64,000 nt of DNA from an uncultured Syntrophaceae bacterium (GTDB taxonomy: Bacteria > Desulfobacterota > Syntrophia > Syntrophales > PHBD01). The stretch lies in NCBI GenBank assembly GCA_964558665.1, contig CAZLFA010000005.1:7603-71602 (forward strand). Reading direction: 5' to 3'. Below, piece after piece: positions 19,996-45,880 of the stretch. Each line of letters begins with the position of its first letter. Within the stretch, counting starts at the first letter, position 1. The notes under the pieces are model-generated. The model saw only the letters and a list, made by a program, of their open reading frames with translations, had not been told where the DNA came from and ran no database searches. The translations under genes were made by a program, and so were the position numbers.

Positions 19996-20023
19996 TTGAC
20001 AAAATACTTCTGTTGATTAAGAT
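19996..20023 (+). promoter_or_regulatory. sigma70-like promoter candidate for tRNA-Gly/rimP operon
   Basis: TTGACA (19996-20001), 16-nt spacer, TAAGAT (20018-20023), about 28 nt before the tRNA. Confidence 0.4.
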
Positions 20024-20051
20024 TGCCTTTCATTTTTACTGCCTTTACAGA

Positions 20052-20126
<75 letters not shown>

Positions 20127-20256
20127 GTTATTTCTCCCCTTCCTTCCGGCATAGCATGCACCGAACCGCTATAAGCCTCGAAAAACTTGATTTTTCTCTT
20201 GCAATGGCAGGGGCGCTGTGCTATGGGATTTCGAAAATCATCGGTTCTCAATGATG

Positions 20257-20279
20257 AGTGGGCGTTTGCCCACTTTTTT
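20257..20279 (+). terminator. intrinsic-terminator-like hairpin in the rimP-nusA leader (candidate attenuator)
   Basis: AGUGGGC-GUUU-GCCCACU followed by UUUUUU, ending 18 nt before the rimP ATG. Confidence 0.5.
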
Positions 20280-20296
20280 GTTTCTGGGGCAATTTT

Positions 20297-20764
20297 ATGG
20301 AGCGCATCGAAGACAGGATCAGTGAACTGGCAGATCCTCTCGTCGAATCAGAAGGGATGGAATTGATTCATGTGGAATGCGTGAAGATGAAATCCCGCTG
20401 GATAATACGGCTTTTTCTCGACAAGGAAGGCGGCATTACAATCGATGACTGCGCTGAAATCAGCAATCAGTTGGGCGACATCCTGGACGTACACGATGTG
20501 CCTCCGGGACCATATACCTTGGAAGTATCGTCACCGGGGCTGGATCGCCCTCTTTCACGGGACAGGGACTACAATAAATTCAAAGGAAGAAGAATACACG
20601 TGAAACTGATTGAAAAAGTCAACGGCAGTAAAAATTTCGATGGACTACTCGTTGACTATATACAGGAAGCAGAAGGAAAAACCATCATTATGGATGTTGG
20701 CGGCAGTATTCTGCATATTCCAAGACAAAAAGTTGCGAAGGCCAATATCAAAGAGGATATCTGA
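20297..20764 (+). CDS. rimP: ribosome maturation factor RimP
   Basis: PYTLEVSSPGLDRPL motif. Position upstream of nusA. ATG at 20297 chosen over the upstream GTG. Confidence 0.85.
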   Translation: MERIEDRISELADPLVESEGMELIHVECVKMKSRWIIRLFLDKEGGITIDDCAEISNQLGDILDVHDVPPGPYTLEVSSPGLDRPLSRDRDYNKFKGRRIHVKLIEKVNGSKNFDGLLVDYIQEAEGKTIIMDVGGSILHIPRQKVAKANIKEDI

Positions 20765-20828
20765 GACAACCGGGCATTTGGTTAAATCGCCTTAAAGGTC
20801 TTATATATAAATACTGGAGGAGCTTTCA

Positions 20829-22091
20829 ATGTTTTCAGAGCTTAAACGTCTGATTGAACAGATGGGCAAAGATAGGGGAATCGATAAACAAATCATTATC
20901 GAGGCGCTTGAGGCGGCTATGCTGACGGCTGCGCGCAAAAAACTCGGTCCCGAAGTTGATATCGAATCCCATTATAACGAAGAAGCCGGCGAGATCGAAG
21001 TGTTTCAGTTCAAAAAGGTCGTGGAGAAAGTAGTCGATCCGGACACACAGATATCTCTGGCCGAGGCAAGGACCAGCCTGGACGAGGAAGCCGAGCCGGG
21101 TGACAGCCTGGGGATGAAAATTGATACCAGCACATTCGGCAGAATCGCCATACAGACAGCAAAACAGATCATCATCCAGCGGGTAAAAGACGCGGAACGC
21201 GACAATATTTACGACGAATATAAGGACAAAAAGGGAGAGTTGGTGAACGGCTTCGTCCAGCGTTTTGACGGTGGAGCGATAATTGTCAATCTGGGACGTG
21301 CGGAAGGGGTAATCCCTACTTCTGAACAGATTCACAGAGAAGTATATAAACGGGGAGAAAGAATAAGAGCCTATATCTTCGATATAAAAAGGATATCCAA
21401 AGGGCCGCAGATTATTCTGTCACGGACGCATCCGGGATTCTTAAAGTCTCTTTTTGAAGTGGAAGTGCCTGAGATATCGGAAGGGCTGATTGAAATAGTC
21501 AACGTGGCCAGAGAACCGGGGAAACGCGCCAAGATATCGGTTCGTTCCAAGGATAAGGATATCGATCCCGTAGGAGCCTGTGTCGGCATGAGAGGCTCCC
21601 GCGTCCAAAGTGTAGTTCAGGAACTTCGGGGAGAAAAAATCGATATCGTGCCCTATGCGGACGATCAGGCAAAATATGTATGCAGCGCGCTGTCCCCGGC
21701 AAAGGTTGACCGCGTCTTCATGGATGAAGACAACCGGTCGATGGAGATCATCGTTCCCGACGACCAGTTGTCGCTGGCAATAGGAAAGAACGGACAGAAT
21801 GTCAGGCTCGCAGTCAAATTGACAGGCTGGAAAATTGATGTAAAGACGGAGGCCATCGCCGCCGATCAGCAGGAGGAAGGGTATCAGTCCCTGATGAACA
21901 TTCCGGGCATAGGGGAAGTTACAGCCGAGCGTCTTTACAATGAAGGACTCAAGAGTGTTGCGATGATAGCCGCAACAGATGTGGAAACGCTTTCAGCCAT
22001 ACCGGGGATTGGTGAAAAGACCGCTTCCCAGTGGATCGATGCTGCAGTGAAGATCATAGAGCAGAAAGCCGGTGGAGAAAAGAGCGATTAA
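20829..22091 (+). CDS. nusA: transcription termination/antitermination factor NusA
   Basis: N-terminal domain, S1 and two KH blocks (GACVGMRGSRVQ), C-terminal HhH region. Confidence 0.95.
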   Translation: MFSELKRLIEQMGKDRGIDKQIIIEALEAAMLTAARKKLGPEVDIESHYNEEAGEIEVFQFKKVVEKVVDPDTQISLAEARTSLDEEAEPGDSLGMKIDTSTFGRIAIQTAKQIIIQRVKDAERDNIYDEYKDKKGELVNGFVQRFDGGAIIVNLGRAEGVIPTSEQIHREVYKRGERIRAYIFDIKRISKGPQIILSRTHPGFLKSLFEVEVPEISEGLIEIVNVAREPGKRAKISVRSKDKDIDPVGACVGMRGSRVQSVVQELRGEKIDIVPYADDQAKYVCSALSPAKVDRVFMDEDNRSMEIIVPDDQLSLAIGKNGQNVRLAVKLTGWKIDVKTEAIAADQQEEGYQSLMNIPGIGEVTAERLYNEGLKSVAMIAATDVETLSAIPGIGEKTASQWIDAAVKIIEQKAGGEKSD

Positions 22092-22133
22092 TACATATTT
22101 ACATTTTTAACCATCTTTATGGGAGTTTCAGGG

Positions 22134-24761
22134 ATGTCCAAAAAAAGGGTATACGAGCTGGCTAAAGAATTGGGGATAGAAAACAAAGAGCTGATCGGAC
22201 GTCTTGAGAAGCTGGGTATTGCCGTAAAATCGCACTCCAGCAGTCTCGAAGATAGCGATGTAGAAAGGGTCAGGAAGGATTTTCTTTCCACCGAGGCACG
22301 GGAGGTGGTCGAAAAGAGGATCAAATCTACGGTCATCAGAAGAAGATCTGTAGTAACTCATACAGAGGAAATCGCTGCGGTTGATGCGGAATCTGCAGTA
22401 CCTGATGCGGCTATAGAGCCACAAAAAGAAGACAAGGTCGAAATCGAAGTGGTGCCACCCAAACCGGCGGCAAAAGAAGAACCTGTCGTCCAAGCCGTGC
22501 CTGTGAAAGAAGAAATTCCGGAAAAGCAGGAACCGCCCAAGGCGCCGCAAGAGATAACGCCGCAGGAAGCCGCAGAGGAAAAGCCCATCGTCCAGATGCC
22601 GCCCAAGGCTGAGATCAAGAAGTTCCCCCCCAAAAAAGACAAGGCACCGGAGCAACCAAGGCCGAAACATACTGAAGCTAAGGAAGTGCATAAAGAGGCG
22701 CCTAAAAAAGAGCATCCGTTGACACCGGGACTCAAGGTTGTGAAGCCTGCGCCTCCCTCCGAAGAGGCCAAACCATTAAAGCTTGAGCCGGAAAAATTTG
22801 CCAAAAAGGGGAAAAAACCGGTTGAAGTGGTAATGGGGGATCAGGCGGCGACCCGCAAAAAGGCTTTCATAAAGAAGAGCGTGGATAAAAAGGATCGCCG
22901 GGAAGACACTGATACTGTGGATGACCGACCGCTCAAATGGGTGCCAAAGTGGAAAGAGGAAAAAAAACCGACGGTCGCCAAGATGAAAAAGACCGAGATT
23001 ACCGTTCCCAAGGCGATTAAAAGACGCATTAAGGTTGTGGAAGCAATAACCGTCGGCGATCTCGCAAAGAAAATGGGCGTTAAGGCCAACGAGGTAATAA
23101 AGAAACTGGTTGCATTGGGTCTGATGGTCACAATCAATCAGGCCGTGGACTGCGATACCGCATCAATCATAGCTTCCGATTTCGGTTATCAGGTCGAGGC
23201 GGCGGTTGAGTATGAAGAAGCGTCCTACAAACCCGAGACGCAGTCGGACAATCTCAAGCCCCGAGCGCCGGTCGTAACGATTATGGGACATGTCGATCAC
23301 GGTAAGACGTCCCTCCTTGATGCGATACGCCAGACCAATGTCATCGGTGGCGAAGCGGGCGGAATTACGCAGGCAATAGGGGCATATCACGTACATATTA
23401 AAGACAGGGACATCGTCTTTCTGGATACTCCCGGTCATGAAGCATTTACAGCCATGCGCGCACGCGGAGCAAAAGTTACAGATATTGTGGTTCTGGTAGT
23501 TGCAGCAGACGATGGGGTTATGGATCAGACAATAGAGGCCATCAACCACTCCCGTTCTGCAGGCGTTCCCATCATGGTTGCCATCAACAAGATAGACAAG
23601 CCGGGCGCAGATCCCGGTAAAATAAAGCAGGCTCTTACCGAATACAGCCTGGTGGCCGAAGAATGGGGCGGTGATACTATCTTTTCCGAAGTCTCCGCAA
23701 AAAAGAAAACCGGAATAGAAGAATTGCTTGAACTCATTCTGTTGCAAGCCGATATCCTGGAGTTAAAAGCAGATCCCGACCGTCCCGCAAGCGGTGTTAT
23801 TATTGAATCAAAGCTTGATCGGGGCCGCGGACCGGTTGCCACAGTGCTCATTCAGGAAGGCACCCTGAGAGAAGGCGATGCCTTTGTGTCGAAGACTGAA
23901 TTCGGCAGAGTGAGAGCTTTGATAAATGATCAGGGCAAGAGGGTCAAAGAGGCCGGACCCGCAATGCCGGTTGAAGTAATTGGCTTTTCCGGGGTTCCTC
24001 AGGTCAGCGCCGAATTCACCTGCGTTGAGGATGAAAAGAAAGCCCGCAGTATCGGAGAATACTGGATGAGAAAAGAGCGGGAACGTGAACTTTCCGCGTC
24101 ATCTAAAATAACCCTGGAACAGTTATATCAAAAAATAAAGGAAGGCATCAAAGAGCTTAATGTAATCATTAAAGGTGATGTTCAGGGGTCAATAGAGGCC
24201 CTTTCAGAGTCTTTAAACAAACTGAGCACGCCTGACATCAAGGTAAAGATAATTCACAGTTCAACAGGAACTGTTACAGAGACGGACGTCATGCTCGCGT
24301 CGGCGTCAAACGCCGTAATAATCGGATTTAATGTCCGCCCGGACGCGAGGGTTACAGAACTCGCCGAAAAGGAAGGCGTTGACATCAAGCTGTATGACAT
24401 CATTTACAACGTCATCTCGGATGTTAAAGCCGCAATGGAAGGGCTGCTGGAACCGGTTTACAAAGAGGTTACACAGGGAAGAGCGGAAGTCCGCCAGCTC
24501 TTCAAGGTCCCCAAGGTGGGCACGATAGCAGGCAGCTATGTACTGGACGGCAAGATTACACGGCAGAGCAGCCTCAAGCTGGTGAGAGACGGTGTTGTTA
24601 TCTATACTGGAAAAATCTCTTCGTTACGGAGACTGAAGGATGATGTCCGGGAGGTAATGTCCGGGTTTGAATGCGGTATAGGCATAGAAAACTTTAACGA
24701 CCTTCATGAAGGGGATGTGATAGAAGCCTATACCAGCGAAAAAGTTGAACAAAAACTTTAG
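22134..24761 (+). CDS. infB: translation initiation factor IF-2
   Basis: [14 protein letters not shown] start, Pro/Lys/Glu-rich N-region, G domain [24 protein letters not shown]. Confidence 0.95.
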
Positions 24762-24826
24762 CAACAGATTCGGCCAGTTAAAACTGATTGTTAAAAGCAA
24801 TTCAGAGAAAAACATAGAGTCACTCT

Positions 24827-25165
24827 ATGATTATAGGTTCAGGCATTGTTGAACTGCTCATCGCAGAAAGTCGATCTCTTAAAGAAAAGCGATCTGTTCT
24901 TAAGAGCATACTGAAGAGAACACAGAACGAATTTAATATATCGATTGCCGAGATAGGCGACAACGATCTATGGGGACGCGCCAGGCTGGGATTCAGCATG
25001 GTCGGCAACGACAAGCGATTGATCGACGCCAAGATCAATCATATGCTCAAGTTCATTGAAAGCATGAATCTGGCAGAGATAGTCAACGCAAAGATTGAAA
25101 TGATCGGCATGTCAGACGAATTGCCTCCTGTGCAATATGAGGAGGAAAAATATGACATCATTTAA
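24827..25165 (+). CDS. DUF503 (YlxP-like) protein
   Basis: About 110 aa between infB and rbfA, as in the B. subtilis ylxP position. SLKEKRSVLK motif. Confidence 0.7.
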   Translation: MIIGSGIVELLIAESRSLKEKRSVLKSILKRTQNEFNISIAEIGDNDLWGRARLGFSMVGNDKRLIDAKINHMLKFIESMNLAEIVNAKIEMIGMSDELPPVQYEEEKYDII

Positions 25166-25526
25166 AAGAGCTGACCGGGTTGCAGATCTCATCAAGGCTG
25201 AGATATCCGATATACTGTTGAAGCAGATAAGAGATCCGCGAATTGGTCTGGTGACAATCACCGGTGTGAAAATGACCGACGATCTTCGTATTGCCAAGGT
25301 GTTTTTTGTCGAGATGGGCAAAGATACCTTAAGCGACGAGACCGTCAGCGGATTGAACAAGGCAAAAGGATTTTTGAAAAGAGAGCTCGGCAAAAGGCTG
25401 AAGCTTAGATATATGCCCGATATCATTTTTCATTATGATCCGTCATTCGCGTACGGGAACCGTATTGAAAAGCTGATAGCAGAGATACACCACGAAGAGG
25501 AAGTGAATGCTGAAGAAGATCGCTGA
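25152..25526 (+). CDS. rbfA: ribosome-binding factor A
   Basis: RADRVADLIKAEISDIL...DPRIG...VTITGVKMTDDLRIAKVFF. aggagg RBS before the ATG at 25152. Confidence 0.9.
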   Translation: MTSFKRADRVADLIKAEISDILLKQIRDPRIGLVTITGVKMTDDLRIAKVFFVEMGKDTLSDETVSGLNKAKGFLKRELGKRLKLRYMPDIIFHYDPSFAYGNRIEKLIAEIHHEEEVNAEEDR

Positions 25527-26460
25527 TGTCATCGTACAACATGACAAATTTCTTGTGACATCACATGTGAGACCTGACGGGGATTCATTGGGATCCACCC
25601 TGGCTTTGTATCACATGCTTCGGAACATGGGGAAATCTGTTACAGTTTATAATCAGGACAAAACCCCGGACAACTACCGTTTTCTTCCCGGAGCCGGAGA
25701 GATTGTGCATGAACTGCCTGCTGTATACGCTTACGACGTAGTATTCATACTGGATTGCAGTGAACTGGAAAGAATCGGAGAGGAAGCGGAAAAGATTACC
25801 AGTGGCCGCCTGATGATCAATATAGACCACCATATATCCAACAGGCAGTTTTGCGAACTGGCATTCATAGACGGACACGCCAGCTCCACGGCCGAACTTT
25901 TATTTCGACTCGCCGATGTCATGTCCATCAATTTGACTAAGGATATAGCAGACAATCTATATACAGGCATTCTCACGGATACAGGCGGTTTTCGCTACGG
26001 GAGCACAAGCAGGGAATCATTGGCGGCAGCATCATTAATGGTGGCCCATGGCGCCGATCCTCAGTGGCTTTCAGAAAACATATACGAGAATAATCCTGAA
26101 GCCAAAATCAAGCTGCTTGCACGGGTTCTTGAAACACTTTCTTTCGACCTTGATGGAAGAGTTGCTTCCCTGGTAGTTTACCAGAAAAGCCTTGATGCCG
26201 CCGGCGCCATGATGGAGCATACGGAAGGTTTCGTAGACATTCCACGATCGATTGCCGGTGTGTCAGTCTCCATATTATTCAGTGAAATGAACGACACTCT
26301 GTATAAAATAAGTCTGCGGTCGAAAGGGCATTACAATATTGCTCGTGTCGCCGAAAAATTCGGTGGAGGCGGCCATGCAAACGCAGCGGCGTGCAGACAT
26401 AAAGGTGATATCTCCGATGTAAAAGAGAGCATCTTGAACGCAGTGGCCGATGTATTTTAA
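25507..26460 (+). CDS. nrnA: DHH/DHHA1 phosphoesterase (NrnA-like oligoribonuclease/pAp phosphatase)
   Basis: HVRPDGDSLGS, NIDHHISN, GGGHANAA. Confidence 0.8.
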   Translation: MLKKIADVIVQHDKFLVTSHVRPDGDSLGSTLALYHMLRNMGKSVTVYNQDKTPDNYRFLPGAGEIVHELPAVYAYDVVFILDCSELERIGEEAEKITSGRLMINIDHHISNRQFCELAFIDGHASSTAELLFRLADVMSINLTKDIADNLYTGILTDTGGFRYGSTSRESLAAASLMVAHGADPQWLSENIYENNPEAKIKLLARVLETLSFDLDGRVASLVVYQKSLDAAGAMMEHTEGFVDIPRSIAGVSVSILFSEMNDTLYKISLRSKGHYNIARVAEKFGGGGHANAAACRHKGDISDVKESILNAVADVF

Positions 26461-27402
26461 ATGAATATGGATGGGATTGTTGTAATTAATAAACCCGCGG
26501 GCAAGACATCACACGATATAGTTTATGATGTGAAAAAAACTCTTGGCGCAAAAAAGGTGGGACACACGGGAACACTGGATCCCTTGGCTACGGGCGTGCT
26601 CCCCATTTGTATCAACGAAGCCACCAAGATTGCACAATATCTTACTCAGGATAAAAAAGAGTATCGGGCCACGATGCAATTGGGCATAAGAACCGATACC
26701 CTGGATATAGAAGGCAATATAATAAACCGAAGCAATCCTTGTGTTACCAGAGGGGATGCAGAAAGAGTTCTCGGCAGACTAACGGGCATCATAGAACAGT
26801 TGCCGCCTATGTTCTCTGCCGTTAAATATAAAGGAAAAGCTTTATACAAATGGGCCAGGCAGGGCATTGCCGTCGAGACAACATCCAGAACCGTAGAGAT
26901 TCAGAAGATCGAGATACTGGATTTTTCTCTGCCGTATGTCACCTTTGATGTATGCTGTTCCAAAGGCACTTACATCAGGTCTATATGCTCGGAAGCAGGT
27001 GATATGTTGGGATGCGGTGCATGTCTCACCGCGCTGGAGAGAACCAGGAGCGGGGCATTTACCAGCAGCATGGCGATATCCCTGACGGGTTTGAACACCG
27101 AGGAGAAAAGAAAAATTATCGGAAGGGAAACAATCCGCTTAAGGGACAGCCTGCCGGATGTTTCTTCCCTGATCATTGACAAATCATATGCGGATAAAAT
27201 CAGGGACGGTTATCAACCGTCGGTGGAAGCCATGAAAATGTATCATATTCCTTTTCTTGCATCAGGAGATATGATAAAGTTTATAATAGATGAAGAAGGC
27301 CTGATTGCCTTAGGTAAAATGATGTGCTCATCGGATGAATTATCATCTCTTGAGGACAGGAAACAGGCTGTAAAAATATTAAGGGTTTTCAACAGCGGAT
27401 AG
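26461..27402 (+). CDS. truB: tRNA pseudouridine(55) synthase TruB
   Basis: GHTGTLDPLATGVL catalytic Asp motif. C-terminal PUA-like region. Confidence 0.9.
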   Translation: MNMDGIVVINKPAGKTSHDIVYDVKKTLGAKKVGHTGTLDPLATGVLPICINEATKIAQYLTQDKKEYRATMQLGIRTDTLDIEGNIINRSNPCVTRGDAERVLGRLTGIIEQLPPMFSAVKYKGKALYKWARQGIAVETTSRTVEIQKIEILDFSLPYVTFDVCCSKGTYIRSICSEAGDMLGCGACLTALERTRSGAFTSSMAISLTGLNTEEKRKIIGRETIRLRDSLPDVSSLIIDKSYADKIRDGYQPSVEAMKMYHIPFLASGDMIKFIIDEEGLIALGKMMCSSDELSSLEDRKQAVKILRVFNSG

Positions 27403-27501
27403 CTTGAAATTCAATGGCGTTCGGAAAATTAGTTTGCCGGAAAACAATCTATGAGGCTGTAAACTAATCAGAGATGAATAGAATAAGGAGGAGATAAGGC
27501 A

Positions 27502-27768
27502 GTGTTAGATACGGAAAGAAGAAAAGACATCATTGGCAAATATAAAGTCCATGAGAACGATACAGGTTCTCCGGAAGTTCAGATTGCATTGATCAGCGCC
27601 AGGATAGAATACCTCACACAGCATTTCAAGGCGCATAAAAAAGATCATCACTCCCGCCGAGGATTACTGAAACTTGTCGGACAGAGAAGACGCCTTCTTG
27701 ATTACTTGAAGAAGAAGGATGTGGAGCGATACAGAAGTGTCATCCAGCGTCTGGGACTCCGGAAATAG
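27502..27768 (+). CDS. rpsO: 30S ribosomal protein S15
   Basis: [38 protein letters not shown] start after ggaggag. Confidence 0.95.
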
Positions 27769-27791
27769 TTTTTATCTTCATCGGCATGAAG

Positions 27792-27832
27792 AGGCAGTGC
27801 AACATTGCATAGGGCATTGTTGCAGAGTGCCT
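27792..27832 (+). promoter_or_regulatory. long imperfect hairpin in the pnp 5' leader (candidate RNase III/PNPase autoregulatory site)
   Basis: AGGCA-G-UGCAACAUUGC / GCAUUGUUGCA-GAG-UGCCU. About 16 pairs folded by hand, 58 nt before the pnp ATG. Confidence 0.35.
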
Positions 27833-27889
27833 TATTCCTATGCTGATGGCAGAATGTCATTTGCTTTGGCAATGAAAGGAAATTAAATA

Positions 27890-30013
27890 ATGAGTCAAGT
27901 ATTTAGTGAAGATTTTGCAGGAAGACCCATCTCACTGAAAGCGCGGTATATGGCCGAACAGGCTGATGGTTCAATCCTGGCAAGATATGGAGATACCGTT
28001 GTGCTTGTGACAGCTGTATCTTTGAAGTCCGCGAGGGAGGGCCTTGATTTTCTGCCTCTTACAGTAGACTACCAGGAGATGACATATGCGGCAGGCAAGA
28101 TACCGGGCGGTTTTTTCAAACGGGAGGGAAGGCTTAACGAAAGAGAGGTACTGACATCACGTATTATCGATCGCTCTATCCGACCGCTCTTTCCCAAAGG
28201 ATATTTCTTTGAAACCCAGTTAGTAGCAACGGTACTATCTGTGGATGGGGAAAATGATTCAGACGTAGCGGCAATGTTAGCAGCGTCTGCTGCCCTCGAG
28301 ATATCCGATATCCCGTTCAGTGGACCCATTGCCGGAGCACGTGTCGGGCGTATCGATGGGAAGCTTGTCTGCAATCCGTCACCGGAGACCATGGCGCAGA
28401 GCGATATCAACCTCTTCCTGGTGGGAAGAAAGGTTGTTCCGGGCACAGGCGGAAGAGATTATGATGTGAACCTTGTTATGCTCGAAGGAGATGCCAAGGA
28501 GGCAGATGAAGATTCAATTGTCGAGGCCATCAATTTCGGTCTGGAGTCAATACGACCCATGATTGACCTGCAGGACAAAATGCGCAAGTCAATTGGAACG
28601 GCCAAGCGACAATTCAGCGCGCCGACGATTGATGTATCTTTGATCGAGAAACTGTCGGGAGAAGCGGATGCCGGATTACGTGATGCCTATAGCACACCAA
28701 GAAAGCAGGAAAGATATGCCAAGCTCGACTATATCAAGGAAAACCTGATCAAATCCTTCGTAACCGAGAATGGAGAAGTATCCTCATCAACCGTGGCAAA
28801 CATTTACGAAGGGCTGGAACGAAAAGTTCTGAGAGAGAAGATTCTGCAGGAAAAAAAGCGCATCGATGGACGCTCCTTTACCGACATAAGATCTATATCA
28901 TCAGAAGTAGGAATTCTGCCCCGTGCCCACGGATCTGCTCTGTTCAACAGGGGAGAGACCCAGGCTCTGGCAGCACTTACTCTCGGTACGTCATCCGACG
29001 AGCAGAGGCTTGATTACATAGCAGGGGAAGAACGGCGGGCCTTCATTCTCCACTATAATTTCCCTCCTTATAGCGTCGGAGAGGCAAGGTCGCTGAGAAG
29101 TCCGGGTAGAAGAGAAATCGGTCACGGAAACCTTGCCAGAAGATCATTATTGCCGATACTTCCTTCGCCTGAGACATTCCCCTACACAATAAGGATTGTC
29201 TCGGAGATTCTGTCTTCCAATGGTTCCTCATCCATGGCGACAGTATGCGGCGGCACTCTCGCCCTTATGGACGCAGGGGTGCCGGTAAAGGATATTGTTG
29301 CCGGTATTGCCATGGGCCTGCTTAAAGAGGGTGATGATGTTGTAGTCCTTTCCGACATCCTCGGCGACGAAGATCATGCCGGAGACATGGACTTCAAGGT
29401 GTGCGGTACGAAAAAAGGCGTCACAGCAATGCAAATGGATATAAAGATAGACGGCTTAACCGAAGACATCCTAAAGAAGGCTCTCTATCAGGCCAGGGAC
29501 GGCAGAGTTTTCATAATCGACAAGATCAGCGAAACGCTTGCCGAACCGAGAAAAGATATATCTCTCTATGCACCACGAATTACAACAGTGATGGTCAGAC
29601 CGGAAAAGGTCCGAGACGTGATAGGATCCGGCGGCAAGAACATCAGACAGATAATCAGCGAGACAGGCGTAACTATAGACGTGGAAGATGATGGAACTGT
29701 TACGATAGCCTCCAGTGATGCAGATGCGGCAGCCCGTGCAATAGCAATGGTCAAGTGGCTTACGGAAGATGCCGAGATTGGCAAGATATACAAAGGGACA
29801 GTAAAGAAGGTTGTTGATTTTGGAGCCTTCGTTGAAATTCTGCCGGGAACTGAGGGCTTGGTGCATATATCTCAACTGGCAAAGGAACGTGTTAACAAGG
29901 TTACCGACGTCGTTAAAGAAGGCGATGAAATATACGTCAAGGTTCTTGAAATTGACAAACAGGGAAAGATCAGGCTGAGCAGGAAGGAAGCCTTGGGATT
30001 CAATGATCAATAA
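27890..30013 (+). CDS. pnp: polyribonucleotide nucleotidyltransferase (PNPase)
   Basis: Two RNase PH domains, FKVCGT, KH (GSGGKNIRQI) and S1 (GKIYKGTVKKVVDFGAFVE) domains. Confidence 0.95.
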   Translation: MSQVFSEDFAGRPISLKARYMAEQADGSILARYGDTVVLVTAVSLKSAREGLDFLPLTVDYQEMTYAAGKIPGGFFKREGRLNEREVLTSRIIDRSIRPLFPKGYFFETQLVATVLSVDGENDSDVAAMLAASAALEISDIPFSGPIAGARVGRIDGKLVCNPSPETMAQSDINLFLVGRKVVPGTGGRDYDVNLVMLEGDAKEADEDSIVEAINFGLESIRPMIDLQDKMRKSIGTAKRQFSAPTIDVSLIEKLSGEADAGLRDAYSTPRKQERYAKLDYIKENLIKSFVTENGEVSSSTVANIYEGLERKVLREKILQEKKRIDGRSFTDIRSISSEVGILPRAHGSALFNRGETQALAALTLGTSSDEQRLDYIAGEERRAFILHYNFPPYSVGEARSLRSPGRREIGHGNLARRSLLPILPSPETFPYTIRIVSEILSSNGSSSMATVCGGTLALMDAGVPVKDIVAGIAMGLLKEGDDVVVLSDILGDEDHAGDMDFKVCGTKKGVTAMQMDIKIDGLTEDILKKALYQARDGRVFIIDKISETLAEPRKDISLYAPRITTVMVRPEKVRDVIGSGGKNIRQIISETGVTIDVEDDGTVTIASSDADAAARAIAMVKWLTEDAEIGKIYKGTVKKVVDFGAFVEILPGTEGLVHISQLAKERVNKVTDVVKEGDEIYVKVLEIDKQGKIRLSRKEALGFNDQ

Positions 30014-38391: not shown

Positions 38392-38429
38392 AACTGCCTG
38401 CTTTATTCATTTTTAGCAGGCAGTTTTTT
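38392..38429 (+). terminator. rho-independent terminator after pilQ (convergent junction)
   Basis: AACUGCCUGCU / AGCAGGCAGUU 11-bp stem followed by UUUUUU. The T-tract overlaps the stop codon of the convergent minus-strand gene. Confidence 0.7.
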
Positions 38430-39276
38430 ATTTGCTTCCGAGCTGATACTCAAAGACCTTAACAACCTTGTTGCCATCCGTATCGGTAACAGATGCTCCG
38501 AATTTGTATGCACCAGGTTTTTCAGCCATCCAGATTATCTTACCGGAATCCTTATTGATGGTCATACCTTCCAGAAGGGGTTTCTCAAGGGCATATATCA
38601 GCTTTTCTCCTTCCGACCCTTGACCCGTTAATTGTATTTCAAAAGGAGCTCCCCGTTTAAGGCTGCTCGACAACACCTTCATTTCCAGAGTAGGTGGAAG
38701 TGTATGAATGACAACCGCACTCGTGAACGGCTCAGATCTGACTCCATCAATGACAGGAACCACAGTGATACCGACCTCGTCTTTCTTTTTCAGGGTGTAT
38801 GACCGCAACTCGTTTCCTCTGGCATTCTCTATAACATTTCCGTTTATTTTCCATTCGTACTCGAAGGAGACTTCTGCCGTACCATTATAGTCATAGATCA
38901 CTTCCGCCTTAATCGGTTCCGTTGCCGTAGGCTGATCAGGAATGAACCTTACAGCTTTTATATTAACCTTGTTGCTTATTGGCAGTCGAGACTGGTCTAT
39001 GGGCTTGTCCTCACTGCCCATGATGAATTTTACCGGTGTTTGGACACCATCTTTTTGAACAGCTGCTTCCTGGACGTTCTTTTTATCCGGTACGGCAAAG
39101 AAATAAACTGCCGTTCCCACTAAAATCACGGCAGCCGATGCAATAGCAATTTGATTTACATATTTTGGTTTTTGCTTTACGGCTAGTTCAGGTTTTCCTG
39201 GTTTTCCCGGTGCCCCCGGTTTTCCCACTTTTCCTGGTACTTTCTTTTTTTTCGCTGTTGTCTTTTCAGTTTCCAA
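38428..39276 (-). CDS. membrane-anchored protein with GKPG repeats and two Ig-like extracytoplasmic domains (hypothetical; last gene of minor-pilin operon)
   Basis: N-terminus KKKKVPGKVGKPGAPGKPGKP, TM helix IAIASAAVILVGTAVYFF, then beta-rich repeats (FEYEWKINGN...; YALEKPLLEGMTINKDSGKIIWMAEKPGAYKF). 21 nt downstream of pilY1. No prepilin motif. Confidence 0.5.
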   Translation of the reverse strand: METEKTTAKKKKVPGKVGKPGAPGKPGKPELAVKQKPKYVNQIAIASAAVILVGTAVYFFAVPDKKNVQEAAVQKDGVQTPVKFIMGSEDKPIDQSRLPISNKVNIKAVRFIPDQPTATEPIKAEVIYDYNGTAEVSFEYEWKINGNVIENARGNELRSYTLKKKDEVGITVVPVIDGVRSEPFTSAVVIHTLPPTLEMKVLSSSLKRGAPFEIQLTGQGSEGEKLIYALEKPLLEGMTINKDSGKIIWMAEKPGAYKFGASVTDTDGNKVVKVFEYQLGSK

Positions 39277-39297: not shown

Positions 39298-42200
39298 TTA
39301 TTCCAGTCTCTTGTCTTTCCAGTAAAGTATATTTGTCCGGTTCGAAACGCCCGGCGGATTGAAGTTGATGCGTGTCGTATTTGCTGAAGTTCCGCTGCCG
39401 CCGCTTACTGTCACGTAAAGATCAGACATTGATGACCCGCCCGGTCTCATTGATATGATCGGGGCTGACGATATGCCTGATCCCACCGACATCGACCTGC
39501 TTCCGCTCGAGAAAACCGGCCCGCCCGTTACCATGTTTATCGCGTAAAGATACGAAGCTCCTCCCTGGTCGCACGGATTGTTTCCACTTGCGGGAACATA
39601 AGATGTGAAATAGGCGACACCGCCAAAAACAGTAGGATCAGCCAGAATCTTTTCGCCGCTTCCCGACAGGTTTATGTAATAACCGACTTTTGTTGTTGAA
39701 GATGTATCATATGTCGATCCGGCGGAAGTAATGTTATCGAGATCGTTTATGCTGTATGTCGTCGTGCGGTTGTTGTCCTTCACGGCAAAGAATTTCTCCT
39801 GCGCGTTGGATGCCGTAGGATCTACCTTGTCGCCCGTACCCCATTGAACCCACATATTGCCGCTCGAATCCTTTGCCACCACGGGAATTGTATAGATCGG
39901 CCTGATTGTGCCCGTCGATGCTCCAAAGAGTTTGCTTCCGGTCCAGTTTCCGGTATTGCAGGTGGCAGAGGCATCAAGCATCGCCTTGGTGCACATCTTG
40001 AAACGCCACATGGTGCCGCCGAGATCTCCGATATACACGGTATCTACGAAACTGTCGTTGTCTGTATCCACAATGGCCGCTGTTCCCGGAAGGCTGTAGT
40101 CCATGTCGGCGTTATCGGCATGGGTGTAGCTCCAGAGGATATTTCCGTTGCTGATATCTACAACGTAGAAACCCTTGCCCCGCGTATCGCAGGTGCCGCC
40201 TCCGGAACAGTCGGCGGCGTTGTATCCGGCCCCGACAAAGGCGGCCCATTTCTCTTCTTCGGAACCGCTGGTTTTGATCAGAACTCTGCCTGTCATGAAC
40301 TTGTTCCAGGGCTCCCCTATATACGGCGCCAACGTGGAACCAGGATTGATGCGCCAGGGAGATTTCGACGCCGTCGGGTAATCCGTTTTGCTTGATACAT
40401 TAGTAATAGGATCAGTAATGTCAAATATCCAGTATCCGCAGTAGTAAGGATACGATGTGGAATATGTAGCGGAAAATCCTTCGTCACAGTACTGGGAAGA
40501 GCTCCATGTCCACGAGGAAGCGCCGCGGCCCTCGCCGAATGCAAGAATTGTATGCCAATCGGTGCTTGTTTTCGATGTCCCGCTGCTTCCGGCCGACCAC
40601 CACACATCCGCCACGGTCACAGGGCCATCGACAAAATAGGCATGTGTCTGGGTGGTAGGATGGACGTTGTGGGCTATGTTTTTCAGCTTCAGCATCAGGT
40701 TCGGCGGGACAAAGCTCCAGGCCTCCGAGCCGTCGGTGGTTTTAAAGGCATGGAACTGCCCGTCATTCGCACCTGCCACGATCAGGCGATTTCCCTGTTC
40801 GGTGGTTGTGGCACAACTTGCAGCCCGGCAATGATCGCAGCGGTGCTTGGCAAAGGCGTTGATTGAGGTGGTAGTGCCGCAGCTATATGTTTTATTCGTG
40901 TCCCGCGCATCGTCATAGAACGCCGAAGGCGTCCCGACGGTTATCGGCGTGGCGCGGAAGATGTCCCCCAGTTTCCAGTTTTCCAGATTATAAGTACTGT
41001 CTCCGCGTATGAAGCCGACGATCATGGTCGCCTGCGAACTCGTGCAGTTATAACTGCAGTTCGTCTGTGATACCGTGCAAAAACCGCTGTTGCAGTTGGT
41101 GCCGGTACAGTTGGTCGTATCTGCCGTACAGGCGGAACTGTTTCCGTAAAGTATGCTTGTATATAAATCTTCAGTCGCAATATTGGAGGTTGTAAACTTT
41201 TTCAATTCCGCGGTGCCCGTTAAAAGACCGGTTCCGGAATCGCGACTCCTCTTGTAAGTCAGGATGTTCCGGCAGCCGGAACCTGCTGACGTCAGCGTGG
41301 TGGTGCACTCCGAAGAGACCGCAGACTGCAGGACACTGCCGGCGTCCCATATAACGGATCCCACCGAGCCGTCGGAGTTGATCTGGTACTTTTTCAGGTG
41401 GCCGAGCCAGAAAGACTCATTTTCGACGGGCTGGAAGGAGCCTTCGTAGAGGTAGTTTTCATCCTGGGTACGCGATGACTGCACGGAGGCCTGTGAAAAT
41501 GAATAAGTCGCTTCCCTGATGATATCGATGGCGGAACGCATCGCCTGTGAAAGCTGAGTGGCGTTTCCGGCCAGAAAGGCATAACCGGCAAGAGAGGCGG
41601 TACCGGGTTCGTTGGTTGTCGCACAATCATATGATGTTGAACCTGAACCCGTACAGGCGGCGGAGGTATCAGACATGCAGGAAGTAACGCCTGTCGGAAA
41701 CAGGTTGGCGGCACCGGAAGCGATAGAGTAACCGGTGGTAGAGCCGGTGTTGACCAGAAGCGGATTGTCGGTCCCGCCGTAGTAGGCCATCCAGTTGAGA
41801 GTGTTTTCAAAGATGTCGGGCATTCCTGAACCGAAACCGACGATAAATGTCTGATAGCCGGCCTCCTTCAATGCCTTCGCTTGTGCTACAGATTCCCGAC
41901 GCCTTTTGTAGGAACCGGACGTGTATTCAGCGCCGTTGCCCCCGCAGGCGTAGGTATCCGAGCCGTCGGTCATCATGATGACAAATTTTTTCCGGCAGCT
42001 TCCCGCATTGTCCGCCGCCTTGTTGGCGTCGAGATAGAGTTTTGCCTCATTGAGCGCCGCCGCCAGGGGCGTGCCGCCGCTGGCATATTCTCCGACTGCG
42101 CACTCTGTGGCCGTGGAGCATTTGTCGCCGCCGGATGTAACGCAAGAGGTTGTAGTCGTTGAACAGCTTGTTTTGTTGTTGCAGAAGATGCAACTGTACT

Positions 42201-42630
42201 TTACGCCCAGCTCTTTTCCGCTCACCAGGCGAATGCTGCCTGTTGAATAGTCGCCGTCGTCATTGCCGCCGGCATCCCGGTAACGCATAAAACCGATGCG
42301 GATCCCCAGGGTACTCTCATCCTGGGCATCGATCGTGCCGTCGCCGTTGTCGTCGAGGACATTGGCTATCGCGCGCTTGGCGATGGCAAGCCTGCTGCAG
42401 TCAACGGTATGGCCTGAACCGGAACTGCTGTAAAACGGGCCGGCACAGGTTGAATCCCCGTATATATTGCTTCCCCCGGCGGGATTCCATGACATACTGC
42501 CGGAGAGATCGAGGACAATGAGGGCGTCGGGGGCCACGGAGGTGAAGATGGCGGTCTCGTCGGCCTGTGCTCCGCCGACGGCAAGAACAACCATCAATGC
42601 ACAAATAATTTTCAGCAAATGCTTCTTCAT
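39298..42630 (-). CDS. pilY1: PilY1-like type IV pilus tip-associated protein with N-terminal vWA domain, unusually Cys-rich
   Basis: Signal peptide, vWA MIDAS DLSGSM (42493-42510) and MMTDGSD, C-terminal propeller-like region with a DTDNDSFVD loop (40042-40068). Follows pilX with a 10-nt gap. Confidence 0.85.
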   Translation of the reverse strand: MKKHLLKIICALMVVLAVGGAQADETAIFTSVAPDALIVLDLSGSMSWNPAGGSNIYGDSTCAGPFYSSSGSGHTVDCSRLAIAKRAIANVLDDNGDGTIDAQDESTLGIRIGFMRYRDAGGNDDGDYSTGSIRLVSGKELGVKYSCIFCNNKTSCSTTTTSCVTSGGDKCSTATECAVGEYASGGTPLAAALNEAKLYLDANKAADNAGSCRKKFVIMMTDGSDTYACGGNGAEYTSGSYKRRRESVAQAKALKEAGYQTFIVGFGSGMPDIFENTLNWMAYYGGTDNPLLVNTGSTTGYSIASGAANLFPTGVTSCMSDTSAACTGSGSTSYDCATTNEPGTASLAGYAFLAGNATQLSQAMRSAIDIIREATYSFSQASVQSSRTQDENYLYEGSFQPVENESFWLGHLKKYQINSDGSVGSVIWDAGSVLQSAVSSECTTTLTSAGSGCRNILTYKRSRDSGTGLLTGTAELKKFTTSNIATEDLYTSILYGNSSACTADTTNCTGTNCNSGFCTVSQTNCSYNCTSSQATMIVGFIRGDSTYNLENWKLGDIFRATPITVGTPSAFYDDARDTNKTYSCGTTTSINAFAKHRCDHCRAASCATTTEQGNRLIVAGANDGQFHAFKTTDGSEAWSFVPPNLMLKLKNIAHNVHPTTQTHAYFVDGPVTVADVWWSAGSSGTSKTSTDWHTILAFGEGRGASSWTWSSSQYCDEGFSATYSTSYPYYCGYWIFDITDPITNVSSKTDYPTASKSPWRINPGSTLAPYIGEPWNKFMTGRVLIKTSGSEEEKWAAFVGAGYNAADCSGGGTCDTRGKGFYVVDISNGNILWSYTHADNADMDYSLPGTAAIVDTDNDSFVDTVYIGDLGGTMWRFKMCTKAMLDASATCNTGNWTGSKLFGASTGTIRPIYTIPVVAKDSSGNMWVQWGTGDKVDPTASNAQEKFFAVKDNNRTTTYSINDLDNITSAGSTYDTSSTTKVGYYINLSGSGEKILADPTVFGGVAYFTSYVPASGNNPCDQGGASYLYAINMVTGGPVFSSGSRSMSVGSGISSAPIISMRPGGSSMSDLYVTVSGGSGTSANTTRINFNPPGVSNRTNILYWKDKRLE

Positions 42631-42640
42631 TTAACCCTCC

Positions 42641-43156
42641 TCATCTCGACATCGTCGAAATTTCAATTGGCCCGTAGCCGACTCCGACCCCGATAGCCGC
42701 AGTTGTATTGTACTTGGTATTCCGGCCTGTAACAGTTACATTGTAGCGCCTCTGCCCCCACGTCTGACCTCCTCCGATGGAATACCCGACCATGGGAATA
42801 AATACCGGCCCCGTAGTCGGTACGGTAGGCGTACCTATTGTGTACAGCGACGTCGGATCGACGGCGATGTCATCCGCAACCGTGGTTCCGGCACTGGCGG
42901 CAAGATTCTGCGGGTCAAAGGTCATGGTAAGGCGGTTAATGCCCTTCTCTGCAGCGGCAAGCGCCTTCTTGTCTCCCATGACCTGTACACTTGTCCTGAC
43001 ATCCTGAGTTGACAAGGCAACGACGAGCATCGCCAGGGCCATCAGGATCATAGAGGCGATTATCGCCAGAACCAGGGCAAATCCCTGCTGAGATCCCAGC
43101 CTGGGAAGGTTACCGATCATAATAGCCGTGATATCCTTTTTATTGTGCTGGTGCAT
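42641..43156 (-). CDS. pilX: PilX-like minor pilin
   Basis: QQGFALVLAIIASMILMALAMLVV hydrophobic N-terminus without Glu5, as is usual for PilX. Operon position. Confidence 0.6.
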   Translation of the reverse strand: MHQHNKKDITAIMIGNLPRLGSQQGFALVLAIIASMILMALAMLVVALSTQDVRTSVQVMGDKKALAAAEKGINRLTMTFDPQNLAASAGTTVADDIAVDPTSLYTIGTPTVPTTGPVFIPMVGYSIGGGQTWGQRRYNVTVTGRNTKYNTTAAIGVGVGYGPIEISTMSR

Positions 43157-43859
43157 GGTTCCTCACAATCACACTTGATGAATAGATTATCCTTGACGGC
43201 TGATTGGTTGTCGGATTCGCGTATTCCGTTTCCACGGCAAGAATTATGTCAATCCTCCTGATATCCGGCATGGTGGCGGCGGTAAGGGTTGACCCGGGTA
43301 GCAGCTCCGTCCCGGATCCGTTGAAGTAGCGAAAAACAGGCAGGCCCAGGGTGGTGTTTATCACCCTGACAGTTTTCTGATTGCCAACGCTGCCGCCCAA
43401 TAGAGGCTGGCCGCCGGGACTGCAACTGCCGGGCGGAGGTCTTTTGGATTCTCTGGTAATCTGCTGGTTAGCCGTATCGTAATTAAAGCGGATGATTTCG
43501 TTTTCCACATCACCGATTGATGAACTCTCGTTTATATCCATTTGAACAGTAATGGAGTTGGCGGTCGCTTCCTGAATTCCTTTATAAGTGGGAGTTGCAG
43601 AGGTACTGAAACAGTTCGCGGTGCTCAGCCACAATTCGGAGTCCATCACAAAATTGGGGTTGAACGATGCCATGCGGATTTCCATTTCCATCAACCCCAG
43701 GGCTGCCTTTTCGTCCTGTTGTGCCATTACTCTTCTTTCAATACCGCTTGATGAGCGTTGGGCTATATTCACAACGCCGTAAATCGCCACCAGCAGCAAC
43801 ATGCCGATCGTCATCGCCACTACAATCTCAACCAGGGTAAAACCTTTATGATTTTTCAT
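43140..43859 (-). CDS. pilW: PilW-like minor pilin
   Basis: Prepilin motif KGFTLVEIVVAMTIGMLLL. The ATG at 43859 forms an ATGA overlap with the pilV stop. The long upstream extension in the ORF track was rejected. Confidence 0.7.
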   Translation of the reverse strand: MKNHKGFTLVEIVVAMTIGMLLLVAIYGVVNIAQRSSSGIERRVMAQQDEKAALGLMEMEIRMASFNPNFVMDSELWLSTANCFSTSATPTYKGIQEATANSITVQMDINESSSIGDVENEIIRFNYDTANQQITRESKRPPPGSCSPGGQPLLGGSVGNQKTVRVINTTLGLPVFRYFNGSGTELLPGSTLTAATMPDIRRIDIILAVETEYANPTTNQPSRIIYSSSVIVRNHAPAQ

Positions 43860-44293
43860 ACGCATCCAAACCTGAAACGTTCCTGCCTTGTAACAACAAG
43901 GCTTTCCGTTACTCCTGTATTGTTTATCGGGGGCCAGGTAACCGTGACAGTCACCCGCCATGCGTTTGTAGCAATATTCGTTATTGTCGTTTGTACCTGA
44001 TATACGGCATCTCCCTGAACCGAGCCTGTCGTACCGCTTATCTTTACAGACTCTGTCGGTAAAGTGCCCGTGGTTACTGCAAAGCAGGGGTTCATGATCA
44101 GCGATTCCCGCAACTCCAGCTGGCTTTGCAGTATGCCTGCCGCCCGGCCAAGATAGTCTGATCTGGCTGTCATCTTCCATGCTGATGGCTGCAGGGCAAG
44201 CAGCGCCAGGATGCCGGTTACGGTTATCATTATTGCTATCAGCACTTCTATTAAGCCGAATCCTCGTTTATTATTGCATATTGAAAGTGACAT
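43856..44293 (-). CDS. pilV: PilV-like minor pilin
   Basis: KRGFGLIEVLIAIMITVTGILAL prepilin cleavage/methylation motif. Confidence 0.7.
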   Translation of the reverse strand: MSLSICNNKRGFGLIEVLIAIMITVTGILALLALQPSAWKMTARSDYLGRAAGILQSQLELRESLIMNPCFAVTTGTLPTESVKISGTTGSVQGDAVYQVQTTITNIATNAWRVTVTVTWPPINNTGVTESLVVTRQERFRFGCV

Positions 44294-44747
44294 AGGCCTT
44301 TCCTGTCGTACTTACAGTGATGACTGCTGTTGACCCCCTGCTGTTTCTTAAAGTAACCGTACCGTTTGGATCGCTTGTTCCCCGTACTCTGAAGAAAATT
44401 TGCTTTGTGCCTGAAAAATTGGCTGCTGATATCGCAATATCGGCGTCAAATGTTCTCGGTGTCTTGGTTTGATAAGTATTAAATACCGTCGGCGTAGCCG
44501 TCTCTGCATAAGATATAACATAGTTGTTATTGCTGGAATCATCAAAAGTAATTTTGTAGATTCTGCTCTCGCTTCTCGCCTTTTCTTTTGCATTTGCCAT
44601 GTCTGCTTGGACATCCCTGGCTGCTGATCGCAAATTGGCATTTGAAGAGTATCTGTTCCAGGTAAATGTGGTAAAAGTTGCCAAAATGCCCATAATGAAC
44701 ATTACGATCAGTACTTCCACCATTGAAAAGCCGCGTCTGTTTTTCAT
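44271..44747 (-). CDS. fimT: FimT/FimU (GspH-like) minor pilin
   Basis: MKNRRGFSMVEVLIVMFIMGILA prepilin motif. About 158 aa. First pilin of the operon. Confidence 0.7.
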   Translation of the reverse strand: MKNRRGFSMVEVLIVMFIMGILATFTTFTWNRYSSNANLRSAARDVQADMANAKEKARSESRIYKITFDDSSNNNYVISYAETATPTVFNTYQTKTPRTFDADIAISAANFSGTKQIFFRVRGTSDPNGTVTLRNSRGSTAVITVSTTGKAYVTFNMQ

Positions 44748-45601
44748 TACATCTTTCCGTCTATGGTCTGTATAAGTTCATCCTCGGGCAACGCCCCTTC
44801 GCGAACCCGCCCATCCGGCATGATTATGGTCGGAGTTGCTCCGAAACCGAGAGATTGCGCCAATTTTTTTGAATTATCGATCTCCTCGGTGTTGCATTCC
44901 ACTTTTTTTATCTCTTTTCTATCGAAATTATCTTCAAGCATTTTCATTGATTTACTGCACACGACACTCTTTGCCTTCCAATATGCGTCCTTATGAAAAT
45001 CGAGTGGAAAAAATTTTATATAGAAGGAGATGTCTTTTCGTTTCAAAGCAATCTGCTTAATCGTCTTATGAAGCTGGCCGCAGAAACCGCAATCCGGGTC
45101 CGTAAACAAAATTACCTTTTTTGAAGCTGCAGTTTCACCTACCACCAATGCCTCATTCAAAGGAATCGCTGATATATCGACTTTTTTATTATCCTTTATC
45201 TTCCGTATCGTCTCTGCCGTAAAATTTACCATGGGATCAAGTCCGATCAGCGAACCCATCATCACATATTTCTTGTTCACATCGACATATAGAATATATG
45301 GCTTCCGCCTGCTTTCAATTACAATCTCGCAAAATCCCTTTGCCGCACTGTCCGACCAACTGACAATTTTTACATCCGATGCATCAAGCTTTTTCAATAC
45401 ACCCCTGATATCCTCCTCGGTGAAAGTTGTACAAGTTGTCTGCGAAGATTTCTGCTGTATAACCTTTGAAGATTTCTTGCCCCTGTCACTCTTGGATTCC
45501 TTTCCCCAGGCTGCAGTTCCCGTCTGAACAATAAACAATAATAAGACGAAACAAAAAACCAGACCTTGATTCTTCGGCTGTTCAAATCGATTCATTATCA
45601 A
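44747..45601 (-). CDS. DsbC/DsbG-like periplasmic thiol:disulfide isomerase
   Basis: FTDPDCGFCGQLH (compare E. coli DsbC FTDITCGYCHKLH), thioredoxin fold with an N-terminal domain, signal peptide. TTG at 45601 lies 9 nt after AGGAGG (45611-45616); the ATG at 45595 is an alternative. The stop overlaps the fimT ATG by 1 nt. Confidence 0.75.
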   Translation of the reverse strand: MIMNRFEQPKNQGLVFCFVLLLFIVQTGTAAWGKESKSDRGKKSSKVIQQKSSQTTCTTFTEEDIRGVLKKLDASDVKIVSWSDSAAKGFCEIVIESRRKPYILYVDVNKKYVMMGSLIGLDPMVNFTAETIRKIKDNKKVDISAIPLNEALVVGETAASKKVILFTDPDCGFCGQLHKTIKQIALKRKDISFYIKFFPLDFHKDAYWKAKSVVCSKSMKMLEDNFDRKEIKKVECNTEEIDNSKKLAQSLGFGATPTIIMPDGRVREGALPEDELIQTIDGKM

Positions 45602-45789
45602 GCGGCAGCACCTCCTGAAGTTTATCAACCATTTATTATTCTTTAAAAAAATGTTTAATAATTATACCTTGAGTTAAAAGTTTTAACAATATATTTACTT
45701 TGCTCGGTTTTAGGAATTTGTTTTTGGCAGGGGCTTTGGAACACCTCTTCCGGGGCTAAACACCTATCCCAGAGGAGGTGCTATGCTCA

Positions 45790-45880
45790 CCCGGCAACCC
45801 TGCTGCCATATCCAATTCACTTAAGACTTAGGCCAGAAGCTCTGCGTCCCACCCTTTCGGATGGTTTGCCTTTATCAGGA
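45790..45880 (-). promoter_or_regulatory. c-di-GMP-I (GEMM-I) riboswitch aptamer
   Basis: Minus-strand AAAGGCAAACCAUCCGAAAGGGUGGGACGCAGAGCUUCUGGCCUAAGUC..GGAUAUGGCAGCAGGGUUGCC. It matches the remembered Vc2 core GGGCAAACCAUUCGAAAGAGUGGGACGCAAAGCCUCCGGCCUAAAC almost base for base. GAAA tetraloop hairpin plus both halves of the 11-nt tetraloop receptor (CCUAAG/UAUGG). Confidence 0.8.

Follow-up and report, generated by a model that had tools for sequence, protein, structure and literature searches.

What holds the many cysteines of one anaerobe's PilY1 homologue, and do they set this protein apart from its family? The protein is encoded in a 64,000-nucleotide (nt) stretch of DNA from an uncultured Syntrophaceae bacterium (NCBI GenBank assembly GCA_964558665.1, contig CAZLFA010000005.1), which we call the window. 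An earlier note on this DNA had described the product as a PilY1 homologue with an exceptional cysteine density and had proposed a disulfide-knotted or metal-binding module. We consider it likely that the protein is the tip protein of a type IVa pilus and that most of its mature cysteines form local disulfides, which would staple surface loops. A stop-free reading frame of 1110 codons extends over positions 39298-42630 on the minus strand of the window. Its translation contained all the motifs quoted in the earlier note, at the residues and nucleotides given there: DLSGSM at amino acids (aa) 41-46 (nt 42493-42510), CIFCNNKTSCSTTTTSCVTSGGDKCSTATEC at aa 147-177 (nt 42100-42192), MMTDGSD at aa 219-225, CTADTTNCTGTNCNSGFCTVSQTNCSYNCT at aa 501-530 (nt 41041-41130) and HRCDHCRAASC at aa 596-606. 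The cysteine count of that note, 34 in total and 33 in the mature protein, had to be corrected. The protein has 33 cysteines, one of which (C10) lies within the signal peptide, leaving 32, an even number, in the mature form.

The cysteines of PilY1 were clustered beyond random placement. When 32 cysteines were distributed at random, six of them fell inside a 31-aa window in 2.9% of the placements; PilY1 has two such windows. Fourteen of the 31 Cys-Cys spacings were eight residues or shorter, against a simulated mean of 6.7. Cysteine made up 2.97% of PilY1, versus about 0.96% of the predicted exported proteins and 1.43% of the cytoplasmic proteins in a crude whole-genome call of open reading frames (ORFs), and PilY1 ranked fourth by cysteine count among the crudely predicted exported proteins of the genome.

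For comparison, we used the 120 best homologues, which were 50-58% identical over their full length and came mostly from metagenome-assembled genomes (MAGs) of Syntrophales. Fifteen cysteine positions (62, 78, 150, 156, 212, 229, 318, 326, 715, 731, 808, 814, 880, 891 and 1020) were conserved in 73-100% of them. Local pairs of cysteine columns were gained and lost together: 120/132 (n = 90), 150/156 (n = 115) and 808/814 (n = 104) co-occurred at a phi of 1.0, and many rarer pairs behaved likewise. The mature cysteine count was even in 90 of the 120 homologues (75%), a bias whose significance is overstated because related sequences are not independent. The pair-wise gain and loss together with the even counts suggest disulfide-stapled surface loops. 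The proposal of a disulfide-knotted or metal-binding module thus gained indirect support in its disulfide half; for the metal-binding half, no recognised metal-binding motif was found in the inserts.

The density itself proved to be less exceptional than the earlier note had supposed. The homologues contained 15-47 cysteines with a median of 19 (n = 120), and eight others besides this PilY1 had 29-47. In addition, a 2026 paper on myxobacterial PilY1 clades reported median cysteine numbers of 17-41 and 5-20 predicted disulfides (PMC13190605). The PilY1 studied here is moderately enriched in cysteine, within a group whose richness in this residue was known before.

We then located the cysteines that this PilY1 has in excess of its family. 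About 17 were seldom or never found at the corresponding positions of the homologues: C147, C163, C171, C177 (present in 29%), C336, C442, C453, C501, C508, C513, C518, C525, C529, C584, C598, C601 and C606. They sit in five loop hot spots, four of which gained even numbers (+4, +2, +6 and +4), and the fifth adds C336 alone. The six-cysteine insert at aa 501-530 had an alignment occupancy of 0.01-0.18 and was without a counterpart in 119 homologues and 19 orthologues of related genomes; at its site, four of the 119 homologues have a small version with two cysteines. In the loop at aa 575-612, this PilY1 combines a 584/598-type with a 601/606-type pair, of which other homologues have only one or the other. 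Same-family orthologues from seven species of a neighbouring genus have 20-22 cysteines and none of the additions. On a FastTree phylogeny of the 120 proteins, at least four changes were required to explain which of them have 28 or more cysteines, and this PilY1 was the only one with such a count in a well-supported clade of 48. It has also lost the 120/132 pair, which 75% of the homologues keep. The view that the inserts are lineage-specific was therefore upheld for the approximately 17 cysteines and the 501-530 insert, and not for the loop around C150 and C156, which is mostly family-wide.

A different explanation is that the inserts are composition-driven and largely disordered loop expansions, tolerated at permissive surface sites, with no specific role in adhesion or structure and with a cysteine content that reflects how neighbouring loops are composed. 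Ser, Thr, Gly and Asn make up 39% of the whole protein, the 501-530 insert is unique and of low model confidence, and the lengths of the hot-spot loops vary widely in the family, all of which would fit such expansions. However, Tandem Repeats Finder detected no tandem repeat in the DNA under either insert, so an origin by slippage is unsupported. Four of the five expanded loops gained an even number of cysteines, comparable pairs were gained repeatedly and independently at these sites, and cysteine is the rarest residue for neutral accumulation in exported proteins (about 0.96% in the predicted set of this genome). We regard tolerated expansion as an unlikely account of the inserts.

The assignment to PilY1 was examined by profile and structure comparisons. 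Pfam PF05567 (T4P_PilY1) matched aa 791-920 with 46.6 bits (cut-off 28.1), and in this genome (3.86 Mb, 98.5% complete) pilY1 was the only match to the family. From 81 homologues we built an AlphaFold2 model, which had a mean predicted local distance difference test score (pLDDT) of 80.5 and a predicted template modelling score (pTM) of 0.77. Its best Foldseek match was 3hx6_B, the C-terminal domain of Pseudomonas aeruginosa PilY1, at E 9.2e-17 and a TM(target) of 0.63. A single-sequence phmmer search with PilY1 against PDB gave no match; a family profile was needed and found 3HX6 at E 3.5e-32. These matches confirmed the protein as a PilY1 homologue with a C-terminal beta-propeller.

The propeller carries the loop DTDNDSFVD, whose resemblance to the calcium site of P. 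aeruginosa PilY1 had been pointed out before and was confirmed here. In the family profile alignment it falls on DNNSDGVAD of 3HX6, and D855, D857, D859 and D863 were invariant in 81 sequences. Calcium motif 1 of the PilY1 propeller reads Dx(D/N)xDGxxD (PMC13190605). DTDNDSFVD matches this motif apart from Ser at position 6 (S860, where more than 90% of the homologues have Gly) and is a predicted calcium site. We also observed an RGD tripeptide at aa 542-544 (~40999-41007), where the family consensus reads RGE. It lines up with the RGD through which P. aeruginosa PilY1 binds integrin, and this position is therefore probably structural rather than host-specific.

The N-terminal part was assigned from a separate AlphaFold2 model of aa 1-480 (pLDDT 82.9). 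Foldseek matched this model to ITIH1 (6fpy, E 5e-5) and Streptococcus sanguinis PilB, a pilin that bears a vWA domain (7b7p, E 8.4e-5), and further to Plasmodium TRAP (4hql) and RGLG von Willebrand factor A (vWA) domains; its strands and helices alternate in the vWA manner. The MIDAS residues (metal ion-dependent adhesion site) were conserved, with D41, S45, T187 and D222 invariant and S43 conserved in more than 90%. Pfam VWA (PF00092) stayed below its cut-off (15.9 vs 23.8 bits) and covered only aa 181-268, because long loops interrupt the domain. As judged by the model, the N-terminal part adopts a vWA fold whose MIDAS is complete, and the segment at aa 147-177 lies inside it, as had been proposed.

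This segment is for the most part a loop shared by the whole family rather than an insert. C150 and C156 occur in 96% of the homologues, and C147, C163 and C171 are rare. Across the family, the loop (IFCNSxxSC...) is 20-46 aa long and contains 0-8 cysteines; that of this PilY1 is among the longest, and two homologues carry eight cysteines. It was modelled with a pLDDT of 80-96 despite having no regular secondary structure, which speaks indirectly for disulfides. The loop would be on the ligand-binding face by vWA topology, because it ends ten residues before the MIDAS Thr. The conserved loop between C62 and C78 (aa 62-78, ~42397-42447) reads C-A-G-P-F-Y, and several homologues have extra cysteine pairs there.

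Some of the disulfides in the vWA loop might be 'allosteric', labile bonds serving as a switch that responds to force or redox state, and the cysteine-rich loop would then be a mechanosensor instead of a static staple. The conserved C150/C156 pair adjoins the MIDAS, and the operon is under a cyclic di-GMP (c-di-GMP) riboswitch (see below). In P. aeruginosa PA14 PilY1, seven of the 11 cysteines lie within residues 48-368, a vWA domain comparable in size. Mutation of its Cys147/Cys152 pair impairs surface signalling and not twitching, and Cys152 was proposed as a force or redox switch; both cysteines of this pair are missing from PAO1-clade alleles. However, C150/C156 was likened to the P. aeruginosa pair by description and not by positional alignment, and no sequence feature separates labile from structural disulfides. 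We consider labile bonds to be quite improbable and prefer structural disulfides for the vWA loop as well.

The pilY1 gene is the last of a six-gene minus-strand operon with the order DsbC-like, fimT/GspH-like, pilV-like, pilW-like, pilX-like and pilY1 (Table 1). The pilMNOPQ genes are on the opposite strand and face this operon. The fimT/pilV/pilW/pilX minor pilin genes lie directly upstream of pilY1 on the same strand, an arrangement conserved in 15 related loci.

Table 1. Features of the pilY1 locus, with positions in the window.
Feature	Position	Strand	Basis
pilY1 ORF, 1110 aa, 33 Cys	39298..42630	-	Stop-free translation; Pfam T4P_PilY1
Signal peptide, aa 1-22, MKKHLLKIICALMVVLAVGGAQA cleaved before DE, contains C10	42565..42630	-	Translation; cleavage site inferred from AQA motif
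Enlarged vWA domain, ~aa 31-375, MIDAS D41, S43, S45, T187, D222	41506..42540	-	AlphaFold2 model, Foldseek, conservation
Cys/Ser/Thr loop in vWA, aa 147-177, 6 Cys, ending 10 residues before T187	42100..42192	-	Alignment, AlphaFold2 model
Lineage-specific insert, ~aa 439-453, C442 and C453	41272..41316	-	Alignment
Lineage-specific six-Cys insert, aa 501-530, linker just before propeller	41041..41130	-	Alignment
C-terminal PilY1 beta-propeller domain, ~aa 531-1110	39301..41040	-	Foldseek and family profile to 3HX6
Hot-spot loop, aa 580-607, C584, C598, C601, C606	40810..40893	-	Alignment
DCSGGGTC, C808/C814 pair, aa 807-814	40189..40212	-	Cys pair co-occurrence, phi 1.0, n = 104/120
Predicted calcium-binding loop DTDNDSFVD, aa 855-863	40042..40068	-	Conservation and alignment with 3HX6
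pilX-like minor pilin	42641..43156	-	PilX_N E 4e-4; syntenic in 15 related loci
pilW-like minor pilin, internal start MKNHKGFTLVE	43140..43856	-	N_methyl motif
pilV-like minor pilin	43856..44293	-	N_methyl motif
fimT/GspH-like minor pilin	44271..44747	-	N_methyl and GspH
DsbC-like thiol:disulfide isomerase, CGFC, first operon gene	44747..45628	-	DsbC_N and Thioredoxin_2
c-di-GMP-I-GGC riboswitch aptamer upstream of operon	45789..45879	-	Rfam RF03167, 66.3 bits vs gathering score 59
282-aa membrane protein with Ig-like He_PIG domain, directly downstream of pilY1	38428..39276	-	Pfam He_PIG E 6e-6

The DsbC-like gene sits between divergent TPR/aminopeptidase genes and fimT. Its product matched DsbC_N with 27.9 bits, Thioredoxin_2 with 57.4 bits and E. 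coli DsbC (1EEJ) at E 5e-9, and it contains the motifs CGFC and ATPT (Thr-cisPro). By the CxxC and cisPro motif classes of DsbC (PMC4597128), it is a DsbC/DsbG-type protein with an N-terminal dimerisation domain, a thioredoxin fold, a CxxC motif and Thr-cisPro, and isomerase activity is predicted. Such a gene heads the operon in nine of the 15 related loci (L028-L035 and L039), comprising all eight of the same family and one of another family. The notion that it occurs only beside the most cysteine-rich PilY1s was rejected, as it also accompanies orthologues with 20-22 cysteines and is missing beside one with 31. Downstream of pilY1, the 282-aa protein with a He_PIG domain has a Lys/Pro/Gly-rich N-terminus and one transmembrane helix. 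A tblastn search found no counterpart of it in the 15 related loci; there, pilY1 is followed by pilQ or by other genes.

Those homologues of PilY1 that carry names come from MAGs of Syntrophales, Syntrophus, Smithellaceae and 'Deltaproteobacteria'. The host is therefore probably a strict anaerobe, the case in which the earlier note considered the cysteines notable. We searched its genome for the enzymes of oxidative folding. In a six-frame scan of the 98.5%-complete genome, the Pfam families DsbB, VKOR and DSBA gave nothing at E <= 0.001, and in 41 genomes of the order, DsbB was found once and VKOR above the cut-off four times. A four-gene thiol-redox cluster was present on contig C15 (14948-17185, minus strand), encoding CcdA, a VKOR-like protein and two exported proteins, one thioredoxin-like (CIPC) and one DsbA-like (CPPC). 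The DsbA-like protein matched Thioredoxin_4 above the cut-off, and its gene overlaps that of a 155-aa membrane protein with a CPFC motif, the VKOR-like one. These two are a plausible candidate for a divergent disulfide-oxidase pair. The idea of a genome without any disulfide oxidase was dropped after this cluster was found, and the organism is thus not shown to lack oxidative folding.

Several further thiol-related genes were observed. A DsbA-like paralogue is encoded on contig C99. Strong DSBA-family matches in seven relatives (G002, G013, G015, G022, G023, G034 and G036) each contain one in-frame TGA, and these DsbA-like proteins may contain selenocysteine. Contig C43 (~12328-28607) carries an F-type conjugative type IV secretion system (T4SS) cluster that encodes TraU (20 Cys), a TraN-like protein of ~1043 aa with ~91 Cys and a DsbC_N protein (CPYC), the only other DsbC_N protein of the genome. 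Contigs C20 (20106-24353, plus strand) and C84 (4156-8395, plus strand) encode paralogous predicted exported proteins of ~1400 aa with 38 and 35 cysteines.

Several observations weigh against disulfides in PilY1. Cysteine counts were odd in 25% of the homologues. No partner was evident for C336 or for C1020, which is invariant and matched by a Cys in the alignment with P. aeruginosa PilY1; when a partner of C1020 was sought through mutually exclusive variable cysteine columns, the patterns were too mixed. The 501-530 insert had a pLDDT below 50 in the AlphaFold2 model and may be disordered. The presence of the DsbC-like gene did not track the number of cysteines: it stands with orthologues of 20-22 and 29 cysteines and is absent beside the one of 31. 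Canonical DsbB, VKOR and DSBA were missing from the scan above, and the VKOR match of the CPFC protein was sub-threshold (E 0.001, 19.6 bits). Even cysteine counts were no more frequent among predicted exported proteins (0.545) than among cytoplasmic ones (0.554), a comparison made with a home-made ORF caller and a signal-peptide heuristic and without a positive-control genome.

Part of these observations would suit another reading, in which the extra cysteines are free thiolates that, in a reduced habitat, bind metal ions, metal-sulfide mineral surfaces or redox-active partners. The probably strictly anaerobic host, the undetected canonical DsbA, DsbB and VKOR, the predicted exported proteome without an even-Cys bias and the short C-x3-8-C spacings are all in its favour. 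However, the local paired gain and loss of cysteines and the even-count bias fit disulfides better. The inserts are rich in Ser, Thr, Asn and Gly and show no enrichment of His, Asp or Glu in addition to lacking a recognised metal-binding motif, a DsbC-type isomerase heads the operon, and the genome has a candidate VKOR-like/DsbA-like pair. Free thiolates are in our judgement a distinctly improbable state of these cysteines, and local disulfides remain the preferred one.

We compared the protein and its locus with known systems. P. aeruginosa PilY1 (PA4554; 3HX6) likewise combines a vWA domain with a MIDAS and a C-terminal beta-propeller. The calcium loops of the two proteins align, as do their RGD tripeptides, both genes follow fimT/U-pilVWX, and in both proteins the vWA domain holds most of the cysteines, including a variable pair. 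In contrast, P. aeruginosa PilY1 has 11 cysteines against 33 here and a Gly against Ser at position 6 of the calcium motif, and the propellers are only ~17-18% identical. To our knowledge, neither a DsbC gene nor a riboswitch has been described for the Pseudomonas pilY1 operon.

With the PilY1 family of Syntrophales and related MAGs (P0002-P0120), the protein shares 50-58% identity, the 15 conserved cysteines, the vWA cysteine loop, the calcium site and the operon; it differs from the family median of 19 cysteines by its ~17 additions, the loss of the 120/132 pair and the unique 501-530 insert. PilY1.3 and clades 1.5-1.7 of Myxococcota also have a vWA domain and a propeller, with median cysteine numbers of 30-41 and 5-20 predicted disulfides, and show lineage-specific differences of length and cysteine count (PMC13190605). 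They belong to another phylum and were compared by architecture and cysteine count; the extra cysteines here are placed in short loops instead of long additional domains. With its vWA domain, propeller and 33 cysteines, the present protein resembles the cysteine-rich vWA-type PilY1s, and its putative disulfides are suggested by pair co-occurrence and parity. Cysteine-rich PilY1s with an interrupted vWA domain are already in the literature, and this case does not change what is known of PilY1. The F plasmid encodes the DsbC-like TrbB together with the cysteine-rich TraN, TraU and TraH (PMC11315126), an arrangement mirrored by the C43 cluster of this genome. Like the pilY1 operon, it is an appendage gene cluster with its own disulfide isomerase and cysteine-rich exported components; as the machine it serves is a conjugative T4SS and not a type IVa pilus, the two are analogous in function only.

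From these data we propose how a disulfide-stapled PilY1 might work. By analogy with P. aeruginosa and Myxococcus xanthus, the propeller with its calcium loop would dock on a FimT/PilV/PilW/PilX complex, and the enlarged vWA head with its MIDAS would be distal and face outward as the adhesive and force-bearing part. Most of the 32 mature cysteines would form intramolecular, mainly local disulfides; both the pairings and the tip location are inferred. About 15 cysteines would be the family set, and about 17 would have been gained in the lineage as extra pairs at variable loop hot spots. Staples at the MIDAS-adjacent loop and at the junction of the vWA domain and the propeller may stiffen these loops against retraction force and proteolysis. 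Variable loops with paired cysteines are the pattern expected of exposed, specificity-determining loops; as the stapled loops vary between lineages, they probably shape specificity. The co-transcribed DsbC-like enzyme might correct mispairing among the 32 cysteines, with PilY1 as its presumed client, and the riboswitch could let c-di-GMP tune how much of the entire tip module is made.

Contact between a type IV pilus and its surroundings is made by PilY1, and the pili of syntrophic anaerobes are candidate organelles for binding partner cells and surfaces. A broader idea, which we offer as a doubtful one, is that the exposed PilY1 head loops of Syntrophales-type anaerobes, by repeatedly gaining and losing cysteine pairs, evolve into stapled recognition loops specific to each lineage, for example for syntrophic partner cells or surfaces. 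The operon's own c-di-GMP-controlled DsbC-type enzyme would then free the folding of the adhesin from the general oxidative pathway, which is largely missing in its canonical form. The case is a clean example of an adhesin head that diversifies by paired cysteine gains at a few loop hot spots, and it connects this process with a disulfide isomerase encoded in the operon and with a c-di-GMP riboswitch, a modest addition to the biology of the family.

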